From IMG/VR virus record IMGVR_UViG_2690316002_000006, positions 1-6,539 of that record: a stretch of DNA of 6,539 nt; one strand, given 5' to 3'. The position numbers and the translations under genes are program-made. The notes under the pieces were generated by a model that saw nothing but the letters and a program-made list of their open reading frames with translations, was not told the DNA's origin and made no database searches. Positions 1-6,539 of this stretch are shown here, piece by piece. The DNA is from a virus (lineage: Duplodnaviria > Heunggongvirae > Uroviricota > Caudoviricetes). Numbering within the stretch: position 1 is the stretch's first letter; each line of letters begins with the position of its first letter.

Positions 1-245
1 TTGATATGGCGAACACCGGTCTGCGCATCGTAGGAGCCAAACAGGGCCGCCACCAGGTCAAACACCCACGGTGCACAGGACTCCCCGAATGTCGGGCTAC
101 CCGGTGCATCCACAATCCGCAGTTGTTTAAAAATCGCCAGTGCATGTGCAGCCTGGTCCGGATAAATCGGAGCCGGAATAATCGACAGCCCCTTTTTCAG
201 GCGCTCTGCCCAGTCCGGACATGCCGTGCTCCATACAGGTATCAT
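1..245 (-). CDS. Phage terminase large subunit, N-terminal part (gene continues past the window start)
   Basis: Minus-strand frame open from ATG at 245 to the window edge; translation MIPVWSTACPDWAERLKKGLSIIPAPIYPDQAAHALAIFKQLRIVDAPGSPTFGESCAPWVFDLVAALFG... looks like a terminase large-subunit N-terminus. ATG overlaps the upstream stop as ATGA (245..242) and a GAGGAA Shine-Dalgarno sits 5 nt upstream. Missing from the ORF track only because it has no stop inside the window. Confidence 0.75.
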   Translation of the reverse strand, partial: MIPVWSTACPDWAERLKKGLSIIPAPIYPDQAAHALAIFKQLRIVDAPGSPTFGESCAPWVFDLVAALFGSYDAQTGVRHI

Positions 246-805
246 CCGCTTTCCTCATTCTGGTTATTCACCACCAGTCGGGGAGGTGGTGGCACCGCAA
301 AACGGTTAGCCGCTTTTTTCGCGGCATCACCTTTTGCCGATTTTTTACCGGCATCGCCTTTTTTATGGTGTGTGAACTGCGCCAGTCGCCAGGCCGCATC
401 CAGTGCCAGTTTCGGGTCAATTATCAGGTTTTCCACCAGGATCTGCCCCATAGCTTTCACCGGATCGGGAAGACCATCCTCCATATATTCAATACCATGA
501 GATATCACCGCGGGCGGAGGCATCTCCGGATTTTTTTCGTCCGGCTGTGGTATTGCAGCCACCTCACGGCGACGGGGTTTATCCTCCTGCTCTGATTTTT
601 TCTGCCGGTAAACAGGAACCTCATCCACCTCCACCGTTTCGCACTGTTTACGGGCTATAAACGCGAGCACCTCCGGATCTTTTGCCAGCTGCGAGCCTTT
701 AACCCTGGCGGTCTTCGCCGAATAACCGGCGGCAATGGCTGACGCTGTTTTGTTTTTCCCGGACATGAGCGCCAGCGCAAATTTTCGTTTTTGCGTTGTC
801 AGCAC
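242..805 (-). CDS. Phage terminase small subunit (Terminase_2-like)
   Basis: 187-aa ORF; N-terminus LTTQKRKFALALMSGKNKTASAIAAGYSAKTARVKGSQLAKDPEVLAFI matches the LT.KQ..F......N.T.AAI.AGYS.KTA pattern of Terminase_2 small subunits. GTG start at 805 follows GGGAGGAGG; lies immediately upstream of the large subunit. Confidence 0.85.
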   Translation of the reverse strand: MLTTQKRKFALALMSGKNKTASAIAAGYSAKTARVKGSQLAKDPEVLAFIARKQCETVEVDEVPVYRQKKSEQEDKPRRREVAAIPQPDEKNPEMPPPAVISHGIEYMEDGLPDPVKAMGQILVENLIIDPKLALDAAWRLAQFTHHKKGDAGKKSAKGDAAKKAANRFAVPPPPRLVVNNQNEESG

Positions 806-1094
806 AGCCTCCTCCCGGGTCCATAACGCACTCAGCCGGGTATGGTTCAGCCCATTTTTCCCGGCGTCTCATGCCGCAAATGTTAACTGCTGCCTGGTTA
901 ACATTTGCTGAAAAAGCCAGTTAACATTTTTTTCGCACAACAAACTGAATAATAAAGATAAAAACCGAAAAAATGCCCGGGCAGCCAGTTAACATGTTAA
1001 CTGGCCTGAAACAGGAATTTTTTCTCTGCATGAGACGGGGGGCGGTGTCCGGAGCGATCGTTTTTTACGCCGAATGATACCCCCCCCGGTCGGG
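806..1094. other. Putative cos region: cosB-like terminase-binding repeats, an A-tract bend and a GC-rich candidate cosN between the HNH gene and the small terminase gene
   Basis: 289-bp non-coding gap in the position cos occupies in HK97-like phages (HNH gene - cos - terS). Repeat / A-tract / repeat layout parallels lambda cosB (R3-I1-R2-R1). G-run 1037..1042 and C-run 1080..1087 flank a roughly 40-bp core. Inference only. Confidence 0.4.
876..1005. repeat. Cluster of five GTTAACAT / ATGTTAAC octamers, including a perfect 22-bp palindrome (984..1005) and a 12-bp inverted pair (876..887 / 897..908)
   Basis: Read directly: GTTAACAT at 897, 920, 988 and its reverse complement at 880, 994; GCCAGTTAACATGTTAACTGGC is its own reverse complement; GCAAATGTTAAC and GTTAACATTTGC are reverse complements 9 bp apart. 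An A-tract block (about 941..975) separates the sub-clusters. Confidence 0.8.
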
Positions 1095-1460
1095 TTACAG
1101 TCCGATGATGTCGTCCGCTCTGCCACTACCTCCGGACACCTCCGGCAGCGTCGGGTCCGGCATACCACCCGCCGCTTCACGAGCAGACTTTTGTCGATGG
1201 CATTCGGTACAGAGCGTCCAGAGATTCGTCTCCTCATTACCACCACCGAACTGAAGTGCAATTCGGTGATCGAGTTCACTATCACAGAGGTCAACCACAC
1301 GACCACAGAGACAGCACTGCCCGGCATCCCTCAGCCAGATATGACGCTTGAGGGAAACCCGGGCACTGCCACTGACACGACGCTGTTCCCCCTTCAGAAT
1401 ATTCACCCGTCGGGTATTCAGTGTTTTGATTCTGCTCTGGAGTGTACGAAGCTCAGCCAT
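1095..1460 (-). CDS. HNH endonuclease (phage packaging-associated)
   Basis: 121-aa ORF with an HNH-type motif: CCLCGRVVD...ELDHRIALQFGGGNEETNLWTLCTECHRQK (Cys pairs flanking a His-containing core). ATG start at 1460; sits directly upstream of the cos-like region and terminase genes. Confidence 0.85.
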   Translation of the reverse strand: MAELRTLQSRIKTLNTRRVNILKGEQRRVSGSARVSLKRHIWLRDAGQCCLCGRVVDLCDSELDHRIALQFGGGNEETNLWTLCTECHRQKSAREAAGGMPDPTLPEVSGGSGRADDIIGL

Positions 1461-1501
1461 GTAAAATCCCCGTCATATAACTTGTCACCAGAGGAAAGAA
1501 A

Positions 1502-1687
1502 ATGTCATCGAAAAACCGGACCCGCAGAACCACAACCCGCAATATCCGTTTCCCCAATCACATGATTGAACAGATCAACATCGCCCTTGAGCATAAAGGG
1601 TCCGGTAACTTTTCAGCGTGGGTTATTGAAGCCTGCAGAAGAAGGCTGTCAACAGAGCGTTCGGGTATGAATTACATAATTAAGTAA
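1502..1687 (+). CDS. Small ribbon-helix-helix-like protein (resembles YlcI/YnfO-type small prophage proteins)
   Basis: 61-aa ORF with a strong Shine-Dalgarno (GAGGAAAG, 5 nt before ATG). Basic N-terminus followed by NIRFPNHMIEQINIALEHKG...FSAWVIEACRRRL, consistent with a strand-helix-helix DNA-binding fold. The only convincing plus-strand gene in the window. Family name is from memory. Confidence 0.65.
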   Translation: MSSKNRTRRTTTRNIRFPNHMIEQINIALEHKGSGNFSAWVIEACRRRLSTERSGMNYIIK

Positions 1688-1816
1688 CATGGTGTTCACA
1701 GAACACACAGTTACCGGACACATCAGTTTTCCATTCGTCCCCCGGCAGTACAGGCTTCCCGTCTGACGGGATAGCCTGAAAAAACACAGAAAATTATTTG
1801 TTATAATTAATATAAC

Positions 1817-1957
1817 TTACTCAAAAAAAAGCGACGAGAAAATCAGCATCAACGAGCAATAAGCGCCAATACGTGATAACAAATGGCAGCCATATTTATC
1901 TGCAGTATAAGCAATGGACAGGATAACCACACCAGAAACCGTCAGCATAAAATCCAT
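1817..1957 (-). CDS. Candidate 46-aa hydrophobic micro-protein (below the ORF-track size cut-off)
   Basis: Manual translation: MDFMLTVSGVVILSIAYTADKYGCHLLSRIGAYCSLMLIFSSLFFE, with two hydrophobic segments. ATG at 1957 preceded by GGGGAAG 5 nt upstream. Lies in an AT-rich stretch; could be a chance ORF. Confidence 0.25.
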   Translation of the reverse strand: MDFMLTVSGVVILSIAYTADKYGCHLLSRIGAYCSLMLIFSSLFFE

Positions 1958-2313
1958 TTGAACTTCCCCGGACAAAATCGACTCATCTAAAGATTTACAG
2001 CTCTTTTTATTATCAATATGTTAAAAGTAAAATAAACAGATGTTCAATAATACGAATACAAAAACGTGCTGAAAATCAATGAATCCATTTCTGTGTTATC
2101 AATTAATAGTGATAAACATCCGGCTTCTTCCACCATCGCACCGGACCAGCGACCATGAGGGGACAACGCCGCGCTCCGTTAACGCGGTAAACCCCGGTGT
2201 GTATCGTTTTTGATTATCCCCGCACACTCGCGCAGAGGATTCTCCCGGTCGGGCTGCGGTCTCTGTTAATGCAGGAATACGGCGACAATACCGCGCATGA
2301 ATAATAAGGTCGC

Positions 2314-2538
2314 TCAACACACTGGCTGTAATGCAGCGGATACCATGCGGCATTTAGCGGCATTCATCGTACACTCAACGGTTAGCTCTTCATTCGTGGC
2401 ATTCACCTGAAAGGTCCTGGAGTGTAATTGCGTACATTTACCACTGAACGAACCTTCAACAAGAACACGACCACGCTGCAAAATACGGAACGGAATTGTT
2501 CCCTGAAAAGGCTTTACGGTTACCAATAATTTCTTCAT
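2314..2538 (-). CDS. Hypothetical 74-aa protein with four cysteines, immediately downstream of Rz
   Basis: ATG at 2538 preceded by GGAGA with 4-nt spacing, only 24 bp after the Rz stop. Translation MKKLLVTVKPFQGTIPFRILQRGRVLVEGSFSGKCTQLHSRTFQVNATNEELTVECTMNAAKCRMVSAALQPVC. The ORF-track version (2314..2556) starts at an upstream TTG; the ATG is preferred. No family recognised. Confidence 0.55.
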   Translation of the reverse strand: MKKLLVTVKPFQGTIPFRILQRGRVLVEGSFSGKCTQLHSRTFQVNATNEELTVECTMNAAKCRMVSAALQPVC

Positions 2539-2561
2539 GCATTCTCCGAATAACAAAAATA

Positions 2562-3020
2562 CTAGTTAATACACTGAGTGCGGATATATTCCTGAAGCAT
2601 TCTCAATGCTGCCTGGTCGCTGATGATTCCGTCTCTGATACCGAGAACGTTTCGTCCAGCAACCGGAGAGAGTTCGACGGCGGCATCATTGCCCACGCCG
2701 GAGGTGCCGGTGGCTTCACGCACGGTACCGGGGCAGGTGGCGTTGATCCGCAGGCGCTTACGACCAGCGGCAACATCAGCACGCAGAGTTTCATTTTCAG
2801 CTCTCGCATCGGCTAATTCCCTCGAGTATTTTGCATCGAGCGCAGCAACATCGCGCTGGCGCACCTGCATATCAGTAATGGTTGCGTTTGCCAGCTCCAG
2901 CTCTCTGGCTTTTTTATCGCGCTGCGCTTTGTAGGTGATGACGTTATCGCGGTAATGATTCAGCCCCAGACTAAGCGCACCACAGACCACCAGCAGAATA
3001 ACGGTAAACGCGGAAAGCAT
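2562..3020 (-). CDS. Rz: i-spanin Rz
   Basis: From internal ATG at 3020: MLSAFTVILLVVCGALSLGLNHYRDNVITYKAQRDKKARELELANATITDMQVRQRDVAALDAKY... closely parallels lambda Rz (N-terminal TM anchor, NHYRDN.ITYKAQRDK, MQ.RQRDVAALDAKY, C-terminal QCI/R). The ORF-track start at TTG 3128 adds 36 implausible residues. Confidence 0.85.
   Translation of the reverse strand: MLSAFTVILLVVCGALSLGLNHYRDNVITYKAQRDKKARELELANATITDMQVRQRDVAALDAKYSRELADARAENETLRADVAAGRKRLRINATCPGTVREATGTSGVGNDAAVELSPVAGRNVLGIRDGIISDQAALRMLQEYIRTQCIN
2603..2809 (-). CDS. Rz1: o-spanin Rz1, a lipoprotein embedded in the +1 frame of Rz
   Basis: MRELKMKLCVLMLPLVVSAC followed by a proline-rich stretch (GSTPPAPVPCVKPPAPPAWAMMPP): lipobox V-S-A-C and Pro-rich periplasmic domain as in lambda Rz1 (MLKLKMMLCVMMLPLVVVGC...). 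Lies entirely inside Rz. The true start could be the second Met (2794). Confidence 0.8.
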   Translation of the reverse strand: MRELKMKLCVLMLPLVVSACGSTPPAPVPCVKPPAPPAWAMMPPSNSLRLLDETFSVSETESSATRQH

Positions 3021-3257
3021 TCGGTTTATGCTCACCCCACCAGCCCTGCCGAAGTCAACGCCATCCAGGTTATGGAAAGAAAAAGAACAACCAGCATTAG
3101 TGAAAATGAAATACCGACGATTACACAAAGGCCCTTCGCCAGCATTATGAGTTTGTCTGACATCTTTACCCCTTAATAGCAGTAATTAACCGGGCAACCA
3201 CCCATAAAAACGGAATCAGCCAGACCAGCAAAAATTTCCAGTCCGTTTTTATCATCT

Positions 3258-3953
3258 TCATGCTGCGGTAGCTCTCCATGCAGCAAGCAGACCAGCAATC
3301 CACTGAACACCTTTTGGGGTGAATTTAACCTGCGTAAAAGCATGACCATTGCCCGCCTCGCCCGTTTTCACGCTAAACCGCCCCGCATCCAGGTGATGCG
3401 AGTAAGGCGTCATTTTTCCAGCGAGGCGATACATTATTCCGTTCTCCAACAAAAACAGCCGGAAATCGGTTTCTTTGATACCGAGTAACTTAGCAACTTC
3501 CCGGAATCCCATCAGACCAGATGCTTCAACATAGTTATCAACAAATTCAGCCTTCGGCGCTGCTATTGCCAGTTGATTTTCCAGCACTGCTTTCTGTTCA
3601 GCCAGTTTTGCCGCAAATCGCAACGCCTCAGGTAAAGTCCGGGGGATCTGAATACCATGCATCGCTTTGAGTCTTGCCAGCACAGAACGACGAACGGCCT
3701 TTGACTCCCTCATGCCAACGAGCATCATCTGGTCAAAATCCAGATCATAGTATGCCGTTCTTGTCTGGTTATTGTTTAACCGGAATTTTTTTCCGGTTCC
3801 ATCAAGCTCTAGCTCATCCTCAATTTTTGCAAGAAACTTACGCGGTTCATGAGGGACTTCTCCGGCTTCTGCCCGGGCTGGATTAATAATGTTATTCAGA
3901 AAATCCAGACTACTCATGGATATTTCATGATCGATAGAAATCATCTCTTTCAT
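3258..3953 (-). CDS. Antirepressor-like protein with a C-terminal KilAC-type domain
   Basis: 231-aa ORF, ATG at 3953 with AAGGAA Shine-Dalgarno. C-terminal region FREVAKLLGIKETDFRLFLLENGIMYRLAGKMTPYSHHLDAGRFSVKTGEAGNGHAFTQVKFTPKGVQWIAGLL matches the KilAC signature. N-terminal domain not confidently assigned. Confidence 0.65.
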   Translation of the reverse strand: MKEMISIDHEISMSSLDFLNNIINPARAEAGEVPHEPRKFLAKIEDELELDGTGKKFRLNNNQTRTAYYDLDFDQMMLVGMRESKAVRRSVLARLKAMHGIQIPRTLPEALRFAAKLAEQKAVLENQLAIAAPKAEFVDNYVEASGLMGFREVAKLLGIKETDFRLFLLENGIMYRLAGKMTPYSHHLDAGRFSVKTGEAGNGHAFTQVKFTPKGVQWIAGLLAAWRATAA

Positions 3954-4085
3954 GGTTGATTCCTTTTAGTGATGAACCCTGCGCACAGGAATAACCAGCC
4001 CAAAGAGGGTTAACCAGACCACTGCCGGTTATCCACCAGGGCTCATCCTGAAAGGTTCTTTGGTTTATTTACGCTTGTGCGAAGC

Positions 4086-4117
4086 ACAGAAATGACAAAG
4101 GCACCATTACGGTGCCT
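4086..4117 (-). terminator. Candidate intrinsic terminator downstream of the endolysin gene
   Basis: Minus-strand RNA: AGGCACC-GUAAU-GGUGCCU (7-bp stem, 5-nt loop; plus 4099..4117) followed by UUUGUCAUUUCUG. About 110 nt after the endolysin stop. Confidence 0.4.
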
Positions 4118-4226
4118 CTGCGTGAAATAATCTGCCTAACTTTATTCACTTACATTTTGCCAGTTCGCAGGATTTCGTGTTATCCGCCCGCGCTGGCCAA
4201 CGTCATTTTTCAGCAAAATATTCTGC

Positions 4227-4760
4227 TTATCTGTCGATTCCCCAGCACGCCAGAGCGCTCTCCTGGTCACGACGGGATACCTGACCATAACAGTTATTTG
4301 AGCGAATACGGCAGTCTCTGCCACCGTCCTTAATCCACCAGCGAATCGCTTCGCAGGCACCTTTTCGATCTCCTGCATTAATTCGTTTATAAAACGTCGA
4401 CGGGAAACACTTACCTGGGCCAATGTTGTAAGGACAGAATGACGCAATACCCGCTTTCTGGGGTTCAGTCAGTGGCACTTTGATGTTTTTCGCCACCCAT
4501 GCCAGCGCCTTATCACGCTCAATGGCGTTAACCCGGTCGCATTTTTCCTTCGACAACTTCATGCCCGGAACGACAGGTTTACCATCCACCAGGATGGCAC
4601 CGCGGCAGATGGTCCAGATACCCGCGCCATCACGGTATGCCGTGGTGTGGTTACCTTCCTTTTCATCCAGAAACTGGTCGAGGATTTCAGGCGCAGGCGC
4701 ACCTGCGGCAATCAGCGCCAGAACGGCAGCCGACAGGCCGTATTTGATTTTGGTGTTCAT
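4227..4760 (-). CDS. SAR endolysin (T4-lysozyme-type muramidase with signal-anchor-release N-terminus)
   Basis: 177 aa; N-terminal Gly/Ala-rich weakly hydrophobic segment YGLSAAVLALIAAGAPAP; catalytic spacing E35-x8-D44-x5-T50 (EGNHTTAYRDGAGIWT) as in T4 lysozyme and phage 21 R. Strongly resembles E. coli prophage lysozymes such as RrrQ (from memory). Confidence 0.85.
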   Translation of the reverse strand: MNTKIKYGLSAAVLALIAAGAPAPEILDQFLDEKEGNHTTAYRDGAGIWTICRGAILVDGKPVVPGMKLSKEKCDRVNAIERDKALAWVAKNIKVPLTEPQKAGIASFCPYNIGPGKCFPSTFYKRINAGDRKGACEAIRWWIKDGGRDCRIRSNNCYGQVSRRDQESALACWGIDR

Positions 4761-4810
4761 GGATATTTATCAGGGTTTATCGATTTCAAATCCCTGGATA
4801 TGTTAAGTCT

Positions 4811-5155
4811 TCAGGCCAGCGGTGGAGTCTTCAGAGAACCAGTAATTATTCCCGGTAGTTTTCCTCTGTAGGTTATCAACACATCCTGCGCCTCTAAAAT
4901 GATGGGCCGCTTTTCCGGCAACGGACCATCCCCTTCACATAACCCGGCAGCAACATCCATGAAAAACTGCTTCGCCTGCTTTTTCGCCTCCGCTTCGTAA
5001 AACTCCAGCGTGGCACCTTCAGTACGGTCAAGACTAATCGCCACATTTGGCAACAACAGTGACGGATACCCACCAATTTCCAGTGCCACAGTAACAGTAA
5101 TCTTATCCGGGTAATTATTTATCCCTTTAACAACCAGTTCGTATTTTTTCTTCAT
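4811..5155 (-). CDS. Hypothetical 114-aa protein inserted between holin and endolysin
   Basis: ATG at 5155 lies 4 nt after the holin stop, with GGGGAGAG Shine-Dalgarno inside the holin 3' end. Soluble-looking, no signal peptide or TM segment. Same position as ydfR in the K-12 Qin prophage (from memory); function unknown. Confidence 0.6.
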   Translation of the reverse strand: MKKKYELVVKGINNYPDKITVTVALEIGGYPSLLLPNVAISLDRTEGATLEFYEAEAKKQAKQFFMDVAAGLCEGDGPLPEKRPIILEAQDVLITYRGKLPGIITGSLKTPPLA

Positions 5156-5159
5156 CGCT

Positions 5160-5366
5160 TTACTCTCCCCGCGCCGCCTTACGCTTATCTTCTTTAATCT
5201 TGAAATAAAGGTTAGTCAGATACGTCAGCAGGCCAAACAGCAGACTCCCCAGCACACCGATTGCCACCCACTGGGACGGAGAGACTTTGTCCAGCAGCTG
5301 CAGTAACCAGTATCCCGTCCCCACCGCTGACGTGGTGTATGACACACCCGTTGTGATTTTTTCCAT
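5160..5366 (-). CDS. Phage-21-type pinholin (class II holin)
   Basis: From ATG at 5366: [68 protein letters not shown], near-collinear with S21/EssQ (two TM segments, charged C-terminus ...KAARGE). The ORF-track version (to 5435, GTG start) adds 23 residues of doubtful reality. Confidence 0.8.
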
Positions 5367-5621
5367 CTGATGTATGTCTCCGTCACCGCCGACAGAAAAT
5401 GAAAGTAAAGGAAAACAAAAAGCCGCCAGTGTCACCCACTGACGGCCAACTCCGGGAGCCGTGATTATGGCATTCAGGCTCTGCTAAAAATGCCAGATAA
5501 CATTCCGACCAACCCCTGATTCAGGTTATAAATGACACAATATCTTGACAACATCCGTCACTGTCTGTCAGAAAATGTACTGCCAAATATAAGTATCATG
5601 TGAAGTACATCTACCCGTTTT

Positions 5622-5660
5622 AGCCAGCGTCCTTCAGAGTGGGCGCTGGCTTTTTTTATT
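5622..5660 (+). terminator. Plus-strand intrinsic terminator abutting the 3' end of the upstream minus-strand gene
   Basis: AGCCAGCGUCC (5622..5632) - 8-nt loop - GGGCGCUGGCU (5641..5651), an 11-bp stem with one G-U pair, followed by TTTTTT(A)TT on the plus strand. On the minus strand the hairpin is followed by AAAACGGG, so it is not a minus-strand terminator. Confidence 0.5.
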
Positions 5661-6195
5661 ATGCTGCCGGTGCATTTATCTCCAGCATCAGACTTTCTAT
5701 CTCAACGCCATACGCTGCATTTTTTGTAACATCCGTCAGCGTCAGCGCATTCAGTCCCAGTGTCAGACTGTCTTTTATAACCTGGAATGCCGGGCCAGCC
5801 ACTCCATTCAGTTTCGGAGTAACCGTGGCACTGCCGGCGGTGAACACCAGCTCCAGCGTCTGCCAGTCGTTACCGTAATCGCCGAACTCCCCCAGCTTCG
5901 TGTTTCCGGCTTTCCTGTGATGCATCAGATTCACTCTGCCGTCAGTGGTCTGAGTGAAGTACGACATCAGGAACGGATTACCGGTACCCGTCATCGCCAC
6001 ACCATCAGGAACGGGAGCATCCGTATACAGATAAATCCCCAGCCCGAACTGATTGTTGGTCAGTGCGCCTGACAGGCGGAACTTACAGGTCAGTCTGCCG
6101 CCCTGTGTCAGCAGGGTAATTGCGTCATCCACCGGATGCGTCAGGGACCAGGTTTTATTGCTCTGCTTGGTGATCTTAAATACACCATCTGACAA
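5659..6195 (-). CDS. 3' part of a cargo ORF upstream of the lysis cassette (possibly lectin-like; hypothetical)
   Basis: Protein-like translation (...GWSIKDGGIQLSDGVFKITKQSNKTWSLTHPVDD...GVEIESLMLEINAPAA) in a frame that stays open upstream to a stop at 6250..6252 with no ATG or GTG in between; the ORF-track start is a TTG. Probably the C-terminal portion of a larger, frame-interrupted gene. Confidence 0.5.
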   Translation of the reverse strand: MSDGVFKITKQSNKTWSLTHPVDDAITLLTQGGRLTCKFRLSGALTNNQFGLGIYLYTDAPVPDGVAMTGTGNPFLMSYFTQTTDGRVNLMHHRKAGNTKLGEFGDYGNDWQTLELVFTAGSATVTPKLNGVAGPAFQVIKDSLTLGLNALTLTDVTKNAAYGVEIESLMLEINAPAA

Positions 6196-6539
6196 CTGAA
6201 TTCCGCCATCCTTAATGCTCCAGCCCTGCGCAGCAGAATTTCCGGTGCCTTACCACTGATGAAGGCTGAGGTGCGCCCGGCTGCGTTCAGAATAGCGGTT
6301 GCCAGACGATCCGGAATAATGCTCCTGCGCGCCCATGAACTGAAATGTGTCGGGCGGTTTGATGATACCTGGTTTCCATTCGTTCTCGATGCCGCACCGT
6401 AATATCCTGATGCCGGAATATCCGGATCTTCTGCCGGCGCGTTAGTGGCGGTATTGACGCCGTTACCGTCTGTCATGAAGGGCACAAAATAAACGCCCTC
6501 ACTCTCCCTGTTTTTATACCCGCCGTACACGGTGTCGTA
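6141..6539 (-). CDS. Upstream portion of the same cargo gene, in a different frame (open to the window edge)
   Basis: Frame open from the window edge: DTVYGGYKNRESEGVYFVPFMTDGNGVNTATNAPAEDPDIPASGYYGAASRTNGNQV...AILNAAGRTSAFISGK... The last roughly 30 codons (R-rich, overlapping the downstream frame) look non-native, consistent with a frame switch near 6250. Confidence 0.4.
   Translation of the reverse strand, partial: YDTVYGGYKNRESEGVYFVPFMTDGNGVNTATNAPAEDPDIPASGYYGAASRTNGNQVSSNRPTHFSSWARRSIIPDRLATAILNAAGRTSAFISGKAPEILLRRAGALRMAEFSCQMVYLRSPSRAIKPGP

Follow-up and report, generated by a model that had tools for sequence, protein, structure and literature searches.

The lysis genes of phage 21 are arranged in the order S21-R21-Rz/Rz1 and encode a dual-start pinholin, a SAR lysozyme and an embedded spanin pair. 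Small genes in phage lysis cassettes can encode antiholins or regulators of the endolysin, such as S21-71, LydB of phage P1, LysA of phage P2 and the releasin of phage Mu, and to our knowledge these are membrane proteins or isoforms of the holin. A second closely related arrangement is found in the Qin prophage of E. coli K-12, where YdfR (P76160), a protein of the DUF1327 family, occupies the slot between an S21-type (essQ-like) holin and an R21-type lysozyme. Small proteins that bind RNase E form another group relevant here; they include RraA and RraB, the acidic protein Dip of phage phiKZ, and Srd of phage T4.

RapZ is also a small RNase E-binding protein (PMC13232886). In the same study a two-hybrid screen yielded K-12 YdfR, of which residues 1-72 were enough for a signal, and full-length YdfR scored in a two-hybrid test with Rne(1-597) (PMC13232886). 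Strep-tagged YdfR co-purified Rne(1-598) from a lysate that had not been treated with nuclease, the study containing no in-vitro pull-down with YdfR, and RNA co-purified with YdfR as well (PMC13232886). Under standard growth K-12 ydfR yielded almost no RNA-seq reads; when YdfR was overproduced, few transcripts changed and growth was not arrested (PMC13232886). This speaks against RNase E being affected strongly and globally.

In this study we analyse a stretch of 6,539 nt from a tailed phage (Caudoviricetes; IMG/VR record IMGVR_UViG_2690316002_000006, positions 1 to 6,539), referred to as the window, in which an ORF of 114 aa separates the gene of a pinholin from that of its endolysin. A preliminary description of this DNA had proposed that the product might be a lysis regulator or, alternatively, the product of a conserved moron. 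We show that the gene belongs to the YdfR family and that it stands at a translation start which is otherwise used by the endolysin.

RESULTS

Gene arrangement at the junction

The ORF occupies 4811..5155 on the minus strand, with its ATG at 5153-5155 and its TGA at 4811-4813. It is preceded by the gene of an S21-type (class II) pinholin of 68 aa (5160..5366, minus strand; annotated as 207 nt; PF04971, 112 bits), which is 75% identical to that of phage 21, and followed after 50 nt (4761..4810, minus strand) by R, the gene of a SAR-type lysozyme of 177 aa with a SAR-like N-terminus (4227..4760, minus strand; PF00959). At the junction the minus strand reads ...GCG CGG GGA GAG TAA AGCG ATG AAG..., so that the holin stop codon TAA (5160-5162) and the ATG of the ORF are separated by the four letters AGCG (5156-5159). 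A Shine-Dalgarno-like GGGGAGAG (5163-5170, minus strand) lies within the last codons of the holin gene (R-G-E). Reading the sequence therefore confirmed the earlier statement that the ORF begins 4 nt past the holin stop with its Shine-Dalgarno inside the holin gene. The same description had noted that the window pinholin lacks a dual start, and indeed only one ATG is present (ATA CAT CAG ATG); it had also given S and R of phage 21 as adjacent, which they are, with an overlap of 1 nt. Phage 21 and the window share the position of the next gene's Shine-Dalgarno within the 3' end of the holin gene. However, phage 21 combines a dual start (MKSM) with the overlap of S and R, whereas the window combines a single-start holin with an additional gene between the two. 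The window also has, unlike phage 21, an Ant (KilAC) gene between R and Rz.

No promoter-like site was found near the ORF on the minus strand, and no convincing terminator after it. Its GC content is 47%, as compared to 52% for S and 53% for R.

We considered whether the holin might start at an upstream in-frame GTG (5435), which would give an ORF of 91 aa. This version is unlikely, since the annotated holin has 68 aa and the GTG lies in a terminator-like hairpin, without a well-placed Shine-Dalgarno. The hairpin itself (5421-5447, minus strand) is strong, with 11 pairs (7 of them G-C) followed by TTTTGTTTT. It separates an esterase gene from the holin gene, at a distance of 55 nt from the holin ATG, and the GTG start of the 91-aa ORF falls within it. 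Polymerase modified by Q is presumably not stopped there.

Family assignment and distribution

The 114-aa protein is a full-length member of the Pfam family DUF1327 (PF07041; 152.7 bits with a cut-off of 25, E = 3e-45), its residues 1-112 aligning to positions 1-92 of the 93 in the profile. No other Pfam family scored above threshold, and a further match was obtained with phrog_406 (E = 6e-64). A profile search had been suggested at the outset as a way to a DUF assignment, and ydfR had been named as the gene at this position in the Qin prophage. This was correct: in addition to the DUF1327 match, a protein labelled 'YdfR family protein' in RefSeq (WP_000731247.1), from an E. coli E110019 prophage whose genes are arranged in the same way, is 100% identical to the window protein. 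Both the gene and the family are thus already catalogued, and this exact protein has a RefSeq accession. We found no NCBIfam match for YdfR or for the holin and no Rfam match within the window, and PADLOC defence-system profiles matched neither the window protein nor three longer relatives.

Of 5426 complete E. coli genomes, 2923 contain related DNA, a single genome carrying as many as 8 copies, and the window region is ~96% identical to Stx1a-converting phages. The DUF1327 family comprises about 280 clusters at 90% identity and, among 1.84 billion proteins, 100 representatives at 50% identity. In a collection with one genome per species it was found only in Escherichia, in Shigella and in two MAG contigs. 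These two, labelled as Firmicutes, are L007 (a Veillonella parvula MAG) and L009 (a Bacillota MAG), and they carry K-12-like arrangements of holin, ydfR and lysozyme. Their proteins are as similar to those of the window as the proteins of the loci from E. coli and Shigella are (46-47% identity for YdfR), and they are almost certainly mis-binned Escherichia contigs.

Evidence for a protein-coding gene

Among 27 close ydfR alleles the numbers of variable sites at codon positions 1, 2 and 3 are 6, 8 and 15, and a comparison of the window allele with a divergent one (L003) gave a pS of 0.52 and a pN of 0.26. This third-position excess, together with the difference between pS and pN, indicates that the ORF evolves as a coding gene. 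Pooled dN/dS for ydfR is ~0.4, from a run that returned identical pS in all three partitions and for which the raw codon-position counts served as a cross-check. Judged by its pattern of substitutions, the 114-aa ORF is a real gene under selection as a protein.

Protein features

In an AlphaFold2 prediction (24-sequence alignment) residues 1-75 (4931..5155, minus strand) form a beta-beta-beta-alpha domain with pLDDT values of 75-94, in which strands span residues 5-14, 18-27 and 37-43 and a helix spans residues 50-73. According to the alignments this N-terminal domain is the core of the family, and it is the counterpart of the K-12 YdfR fragment that sufficed for the two-hybrid signal. It is acidic, with a pI of 5.3 in the window and of 4.5-5.2 in relatives. 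The motifs Y5-E-L-x-V-K-G, D43-R-x-E-G, L-E-F-Y-E-A and D-V-A-A-G-L-C-E are all present, at columns which are invariant or nearly so in the alignment, and Y53-E54 is invariant even in distant DUF1327 members. A search of BFVD for the fold of YdfR returned nothing, and a search of solved structures by sequence returned nothing below E = 1.5.

The alignments delimit a C-terminal tail (residues 76-114 and stop; 4811..4930, minus strand), whose structure is not confidently predicted (pLDDT below 50 for residues 80-113). Its sequence, EKRPIILEAQ...GKLPG.ITGSLKTPP, is nearly invariant among Escherichia variants, and its dN/dS is 0.25. Long relatives of 176-329 aa run on past TPP into a coiled-coil-like extension and further modules, and the window form ends two residues past TPP, at the point where the long forms go on. 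The C-terminal extensions of the long relatives of 183-329 aa matched no Pfam family.

The earlier claim that the protein is soluble was borne out. We found no membrane segment in YdfR; hydrophobic stretches never exceed 10 residues, the longest uncharged stretch has 10 residues as well, and the GRAVY value is -0.02.

Window YdfR shares 47% identity with K-12 YdfR over residues 1-74; after that the two are unrelated, the K-12 protein having ...EKLSEKVESYLQHQYSFKIENPANKHERPHHKYL and the window protein ...GLCEGDGPLPEKRPIILEAQDVLITYRGKLPGIITGSLKTPPLA. The loci also differ downstream: K-12-like loci have no nucleotide between the stop of ydfR and the start of the lysozyme gene (0-nt spacer), as compared to 50 nt in the window. 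The data on RNase E and RNA belong to the K-12 protein only.

YdfR in the place of the endolysin

YdfR lies between an S21-type holin and an R21-type lysozyme in all 87 Escherichia loci that we compared, as it does in the window. In each of the ydfR loci with enough flanking sequence (87/87) the holin TAA is followed by exactly 4 nt and an ATG. A GGAG-type element is likewise kept in 87 out of 87, even where YdfR is only 46% identical, and the letters of the 4-nt spacer vary (AGCG, AGTG, GGCG, TCCA or TTCA).

The same junction is found where YdfR is absent. In the YdfR-less phage Stx2 II the ATG of the lysozyme stands at S-TAA-GCTG-ATG with the same Shine-Dalgarno element upstream, and in phage 21 the ribosome-binding site for the next gene is annotated inside S21. 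Window and phage Stx2 II differ here by a clean indel of ~395 nt, which begins at the 4-nt spacer, reaches roughly codon 6 of R and contains ydfR, the 50-nt spacer and a new start for R. Since the endolysin holds an identical junction in cassettes without YdfR, R has been displaced by ydfR from its coupled start. By this comparison the insertion gave ydfR the coupled start of the endolysin, and the junction belongs to the holin. The coupling had been taken to suggest stoichiometric co-expression with the pinholin and thus a candidate lysis regulator; given the endolysin's use of the identical TAA, 4 nt and ATG, it does not single out YdfR as a partner of the holin.

The 50-nt spacer that now precedes the endolysin ATG is without a GGAG-type Shine-Dalgarno. 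The 14 nt at its end, CCTGATAAATATCC, are conserved in almost every locus with ydfR. Probably the insertion uncouples translation of R from that of S and thereby lowers the R:S ratio, as we infer from the arrangement of the signals. A regulatory hairpin in the spacer was considered and rejected: its minimum free energy is -8 kcal/mol with z = 0.32, and 123 of 200 shuffled sequences fold equally well.

The first ~6 codons of R encode MNTKIK in the window and MSRKLR in the YdfR-less cassette of Stx2 II. In ydfR-bearing cassettes the cytoplasmic N-terminus of the SAR lysozyme (4743-4760 in the window) reads MN(A/T)KI(K/R)YG, with two positive charges; that of phage Stx2 II (L099, 2144-2161) reads MSRKLRYG, with three.

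Occurrence of YdfR and type of holin

A relative of YdfR is carried by 101 of 436 phage records with this type of holin, leaving 335 (~77%) without one. Grouped by record name, YdfR was found in 41 of 47 Stx1a, 15 of 17 Stx2c and 2 of 124 Stx2a phages, a distribution that probably reflects phylogenetic linkage. Hence, medically different phage groups (Stx1a and Stx2c versus Stx2a) differ in the architecture of the S-R junction.

It had been suggested that YdfR might supply timing control in trans for a pinholin without the dual start. This suggestion did not survive the comparison: 61 YdfR-bearing loci have dual-start holins (MYQM in 59, MDQM in one and MKSM in one), and 17 have single-ATG holins (IHQM or IHRM) as in the window. 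Neither of two features expected of an antiholin, namely a membrane segment or holin-derived sequence, and a presence tied to the regulatory state of the holin, is found in YdfR. It differs from the regulators named above in having no hydrophobic segment and no similarity to holins, and in being dispensable for most such cassettes.

The alternative proposal of a conserved moron fared better. A presence/absence difference between collinear phages and a deviating GC content, as seen in morons, are both found for ydfR, which appears as a clean insertion with a GC content below that of its neighbours and is optional for S21-type cassettes. Morons are also expressed from a repressed prophage by a promoter and terminator of their own, whereas ydfR shows no promoter-like site and no convincing terminator. 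Taken together, what the preliminary description had said on the anatomy of the junction, on the identity of ydfR and on the moron label stands, and its readings of the coupling and of a compensation for a missing dual start are not supported.

DUF1327 relatives at other positions

Stand-alone DUF1327 proteins of 72-76 aa (25-40% identical; Pfam-positive in precomputed hits) are encoded in lambda-like tail modules. In L093, L094 and L095 such a gene separates the tail genes M and L, and in L097 and L098 it separates the G/T chaperone genes from the tape measure gene; in L091 it follows I, and in L092 it follows a tape-measure-like C-terminus. The preliminary description had named homologues outside lysis cassettes as an observation that would speak against a lysis role, and for the wider DUF1327 family the tail modules provide it. 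A member of 145 aa lies between Q and the holin gene, 1.2 kb upstream of the latter (L096). The exception, which fits a reading linked to lysis, is phage Evi, where a 72-aa member follows 4 nt after the holin. All of these positions are on the late-gene strand; what they have in common is late expression and not the holin.

In five of the distant loci a convergent ORF of 70-110 aa lies within about 30 nt of the DUF1327 stop (L091 3244-3576, L092 693-992, L093 754-966, L097 5244-5519 and L101 3744-4040). Homologous partners recur at different genome positions, with 45% identity between L091 and L097 (phrog_10490) and 65% between L092 and phage Evi (phrog_25324). Convergent ORFs also lie between ydfR and the lysozyme gene (L033, L004, L003, L068, L076, L081, L088 and L089). 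Wherever the spacer between YdfR and lysozyme in Escherichia loci measures at least 150 nt (14 of 14 loci), it carries a convergent ORF of 61-106 aa, and these ORFs belong to four mutually unrelated types (phrog_18136, 2572, 1853 and 2411). Overall, the convergent partners of DUF1327 fall into at least six unrelated PHROG families, none with an assigned function. No convergent ORF is present in the 50-nt spacer of the window. In this small sample the pattern suggests an exchange of variable cargo at sites marked by DUF1327.

Other genes of the window

Downstream of R follow the Ant/KilAC gene, Rz with embedded Rz1, an HNH endonuclease gene and the gene of the small terminase subunit. The Ant/KilAC antirepressor gene (3258-3953, minus strand; 231 aa) is a second insertion that splits the lysis cassette, here between the endolysin and Rz/Rz1. 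Its GC content of 47% resembles that of ydfR, the lysis genes having 52-55%, and an Ant/KilAC gene between endolysin and Rz/Rz1 is annotated in Stx phages as well.

Upstream of the holin lies a SASA-family carbohydrate esterase gene (5659..>6539, minus strand), which is NanS-p-like and has a DUF6645 C-terminus. Compared with E. coli E110019 and phage YYZ-2008 it shows a deletion of ~83-89 nt at 6237-6241. The deletion shifts the frame, the esterase ORFs 5659..6195 and 6141..6530 being in different frames, and the gene is therefore probably a pseudogene in the window. The segments 1657-2120 and 2299-2692 have no counterpart in the E110019 prophage, which is otherwise 95-99% identical. They lie between Rz and the side of the YlcI/YnfO-like small gene and HNH, a mosaic segment that contains only short unannotated ORFs.

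DISCUSSION

In this study we identified a YdfR/DUF1327 gene at the exact position where a pinholin gene of the S21 type is normally followed by its endolysin. The best explanation of our findings is that ydfR is an optional, moron-like gene of Escherichia lambdoid prophages, which inserted exactly at the holin-endolysin junction. Having no promoter of its own, it is expressed from the late transcript, and it is translated by the Shine-Dalgarno and the stop-restart geometry that the 3' end of the pinholin gene normally offers to the endolysin, the latter being pushed behind a 50-nt leader without Shine-Dalgarno. The product would be a soluble, acidic, cytoplasmic protein with a predicted beta3-alpha domain of ~72 N-terminal residues as its functional core. 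By homology to K-12 YdfR this domain may bind a host factor, for which the catalytic half of RNase E (as well as RNase G) is the likeliest candidate, perhaps along with RNA, and might in this way adjust host RNA metabolism late in induction. YdfR would then neither gate the pinholin nor release the endolysin. To this reading as a whole, that is, an optional late accessory protein at the S-R junction whose N-domain binds a host factor and whose gene uncouples R from S, we assign a probability of about 0.5. Its parts differ in strength. That the gene is a YdfR/DUF1327 accessory gene is close to certain, whereas the involvement of RNase E seems doubtful to us. For the window protein the latter would be carried over from one study on a paralogue with 47% identity (PMC13232886). 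YdfR resembles the RNase E binders in being small, phage-encoded, acidic like Dip and, by homology, in contact with RNase E; the K-12 paralogue, when overproduced, left the transcriptome almost unchanged.

It might also be possible that YdfR, made in step with the pinholin, acts in trans as a regulator of lysis, binding the charged cytoplasmic C-tail of the pinholin or the cytoplasmic N-terminus of the SAR endolysin and tuning the time of triggering, so that it would replace or supplement antiholin control. The invariant linkage to the holin within Escherichia keeps this explanation alive: position and coupling are maintained in all 87 loci down to 46% protein identity, and the domain-only member of phage Evi sits at the same 4-nt-coupled position. 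The first six residues of the endolysin, which differ between cassettes with and without YdfR, would also fit. In an envelope-permeability screen the K-12 ydfR deletion was among the primary hits, which are given in supplementary lists without follow-up (PMC3879167). As it appears only in these primary lists we treat this hit as unvalidated, and it could plausibly be an artefact, with the kan cassette acting in a polar manner on the SAR lysozyme gene downstream. The coupling geometry, however, serves R in the same way where YdfR is absent, and most records with this holin type, among them phage 21 and nearly all Stx2a phages, do without YdfR. Moreover, YdfR accompanies dual-start and single-start holins alike, it lacks the membrane segment of the antiholins and of releasin, and distant DUF1327 members reside in tail modules. 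We found no published test of an effect of ydfR on lysis timing in the literature searched, and a survey of Stx-phage lysis cassettes does not mention ydfR (PMC8136144). From the distribution and the sequence features of the protein, a role in lysis is disfavoured, and we consider a regulator of this kind unlikely.

To a similar degree improbable is a mobile cassette of two genes, in which DUF1327 would travel with a small, variable, convergent gene and serve it as a regulator, an antidote or a conserved recombination flank, the window copy being a 'solo' that has lost its partner. Such a cassette would explain the convergent ORFs next to DUF1327 in the five distant loci and in the 14 Escherichia loci with long spacers, as well as the homologous partners at different genome positions; furthermore, the 114-aa form stops exactly where the long forms continue. 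On the other hand, 62 of the 87 sampled Escherichia copies are solo 114-aa forms which are still under purifying selection, and K-12 YdfR has no partner either. The partner families are mutually unrelated, which makes a specific protein-protein relationship unlikely, and few distant loci were sampled. The insertion might also matter in cis only, in that it uncouples translation of the endolysin and shifts the S:R ratio, with the YdfR polypeptide itself being of little consequence. The loss of GGGGAGAG and of the 4-nt restart in front of R, and the leader without GGAG-type motif that took their place, would agree with this. Yet the protein is constrained, as seen from its dN/dS and third-position excess, and stand-alone relatives at other positions retain its N-domain at identities as low as 25-35%, so that a pure cis effect appears very improbable. 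The remaining probability goes to an absence of function or to something outside these readings.

The accessory-gene reading that we prefer does not account for everything either. The conserved tail (residues 76-114) has no part in it, and taken purely as a moron the gene leaves the tight linkage to the holin in the 87 Escherichia loci unexplained. The linkage could go back to a single insertion that was spread by flanking homology. [quoted passage not shown] If it were true, YdfR would be co-translated with the pinholin and present only in the last minutes before lysis, where it might, for example, protect the long late (stx-containing) transcript or stop host RNA turnover. Differences in toxin output would then be connected with YdfR being present in Stx1a and Stx2c phages and nearly missing from Stx2a phages.

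In conclusion, we characterized a gene family that is found in the lysis cassettes of more than half of the complete E. coli genomes and of most Stx1a and Stx2c phages. The displacement of R, the independence from the dual start and the tail-module relatives with convergent partners are absent from the papers searched, and we consider them new, if incremental. The takeover of the coupled start, together with the relatives in tail modules, moves the question from whether YdfR is an antiholin to whether it is a late binder of a host factor. If the link to RNase E were true for the phage copies as well, YdfR would represent a new phage strategy in a medically important group; otherwise it would be an ordinary accessory ORF.
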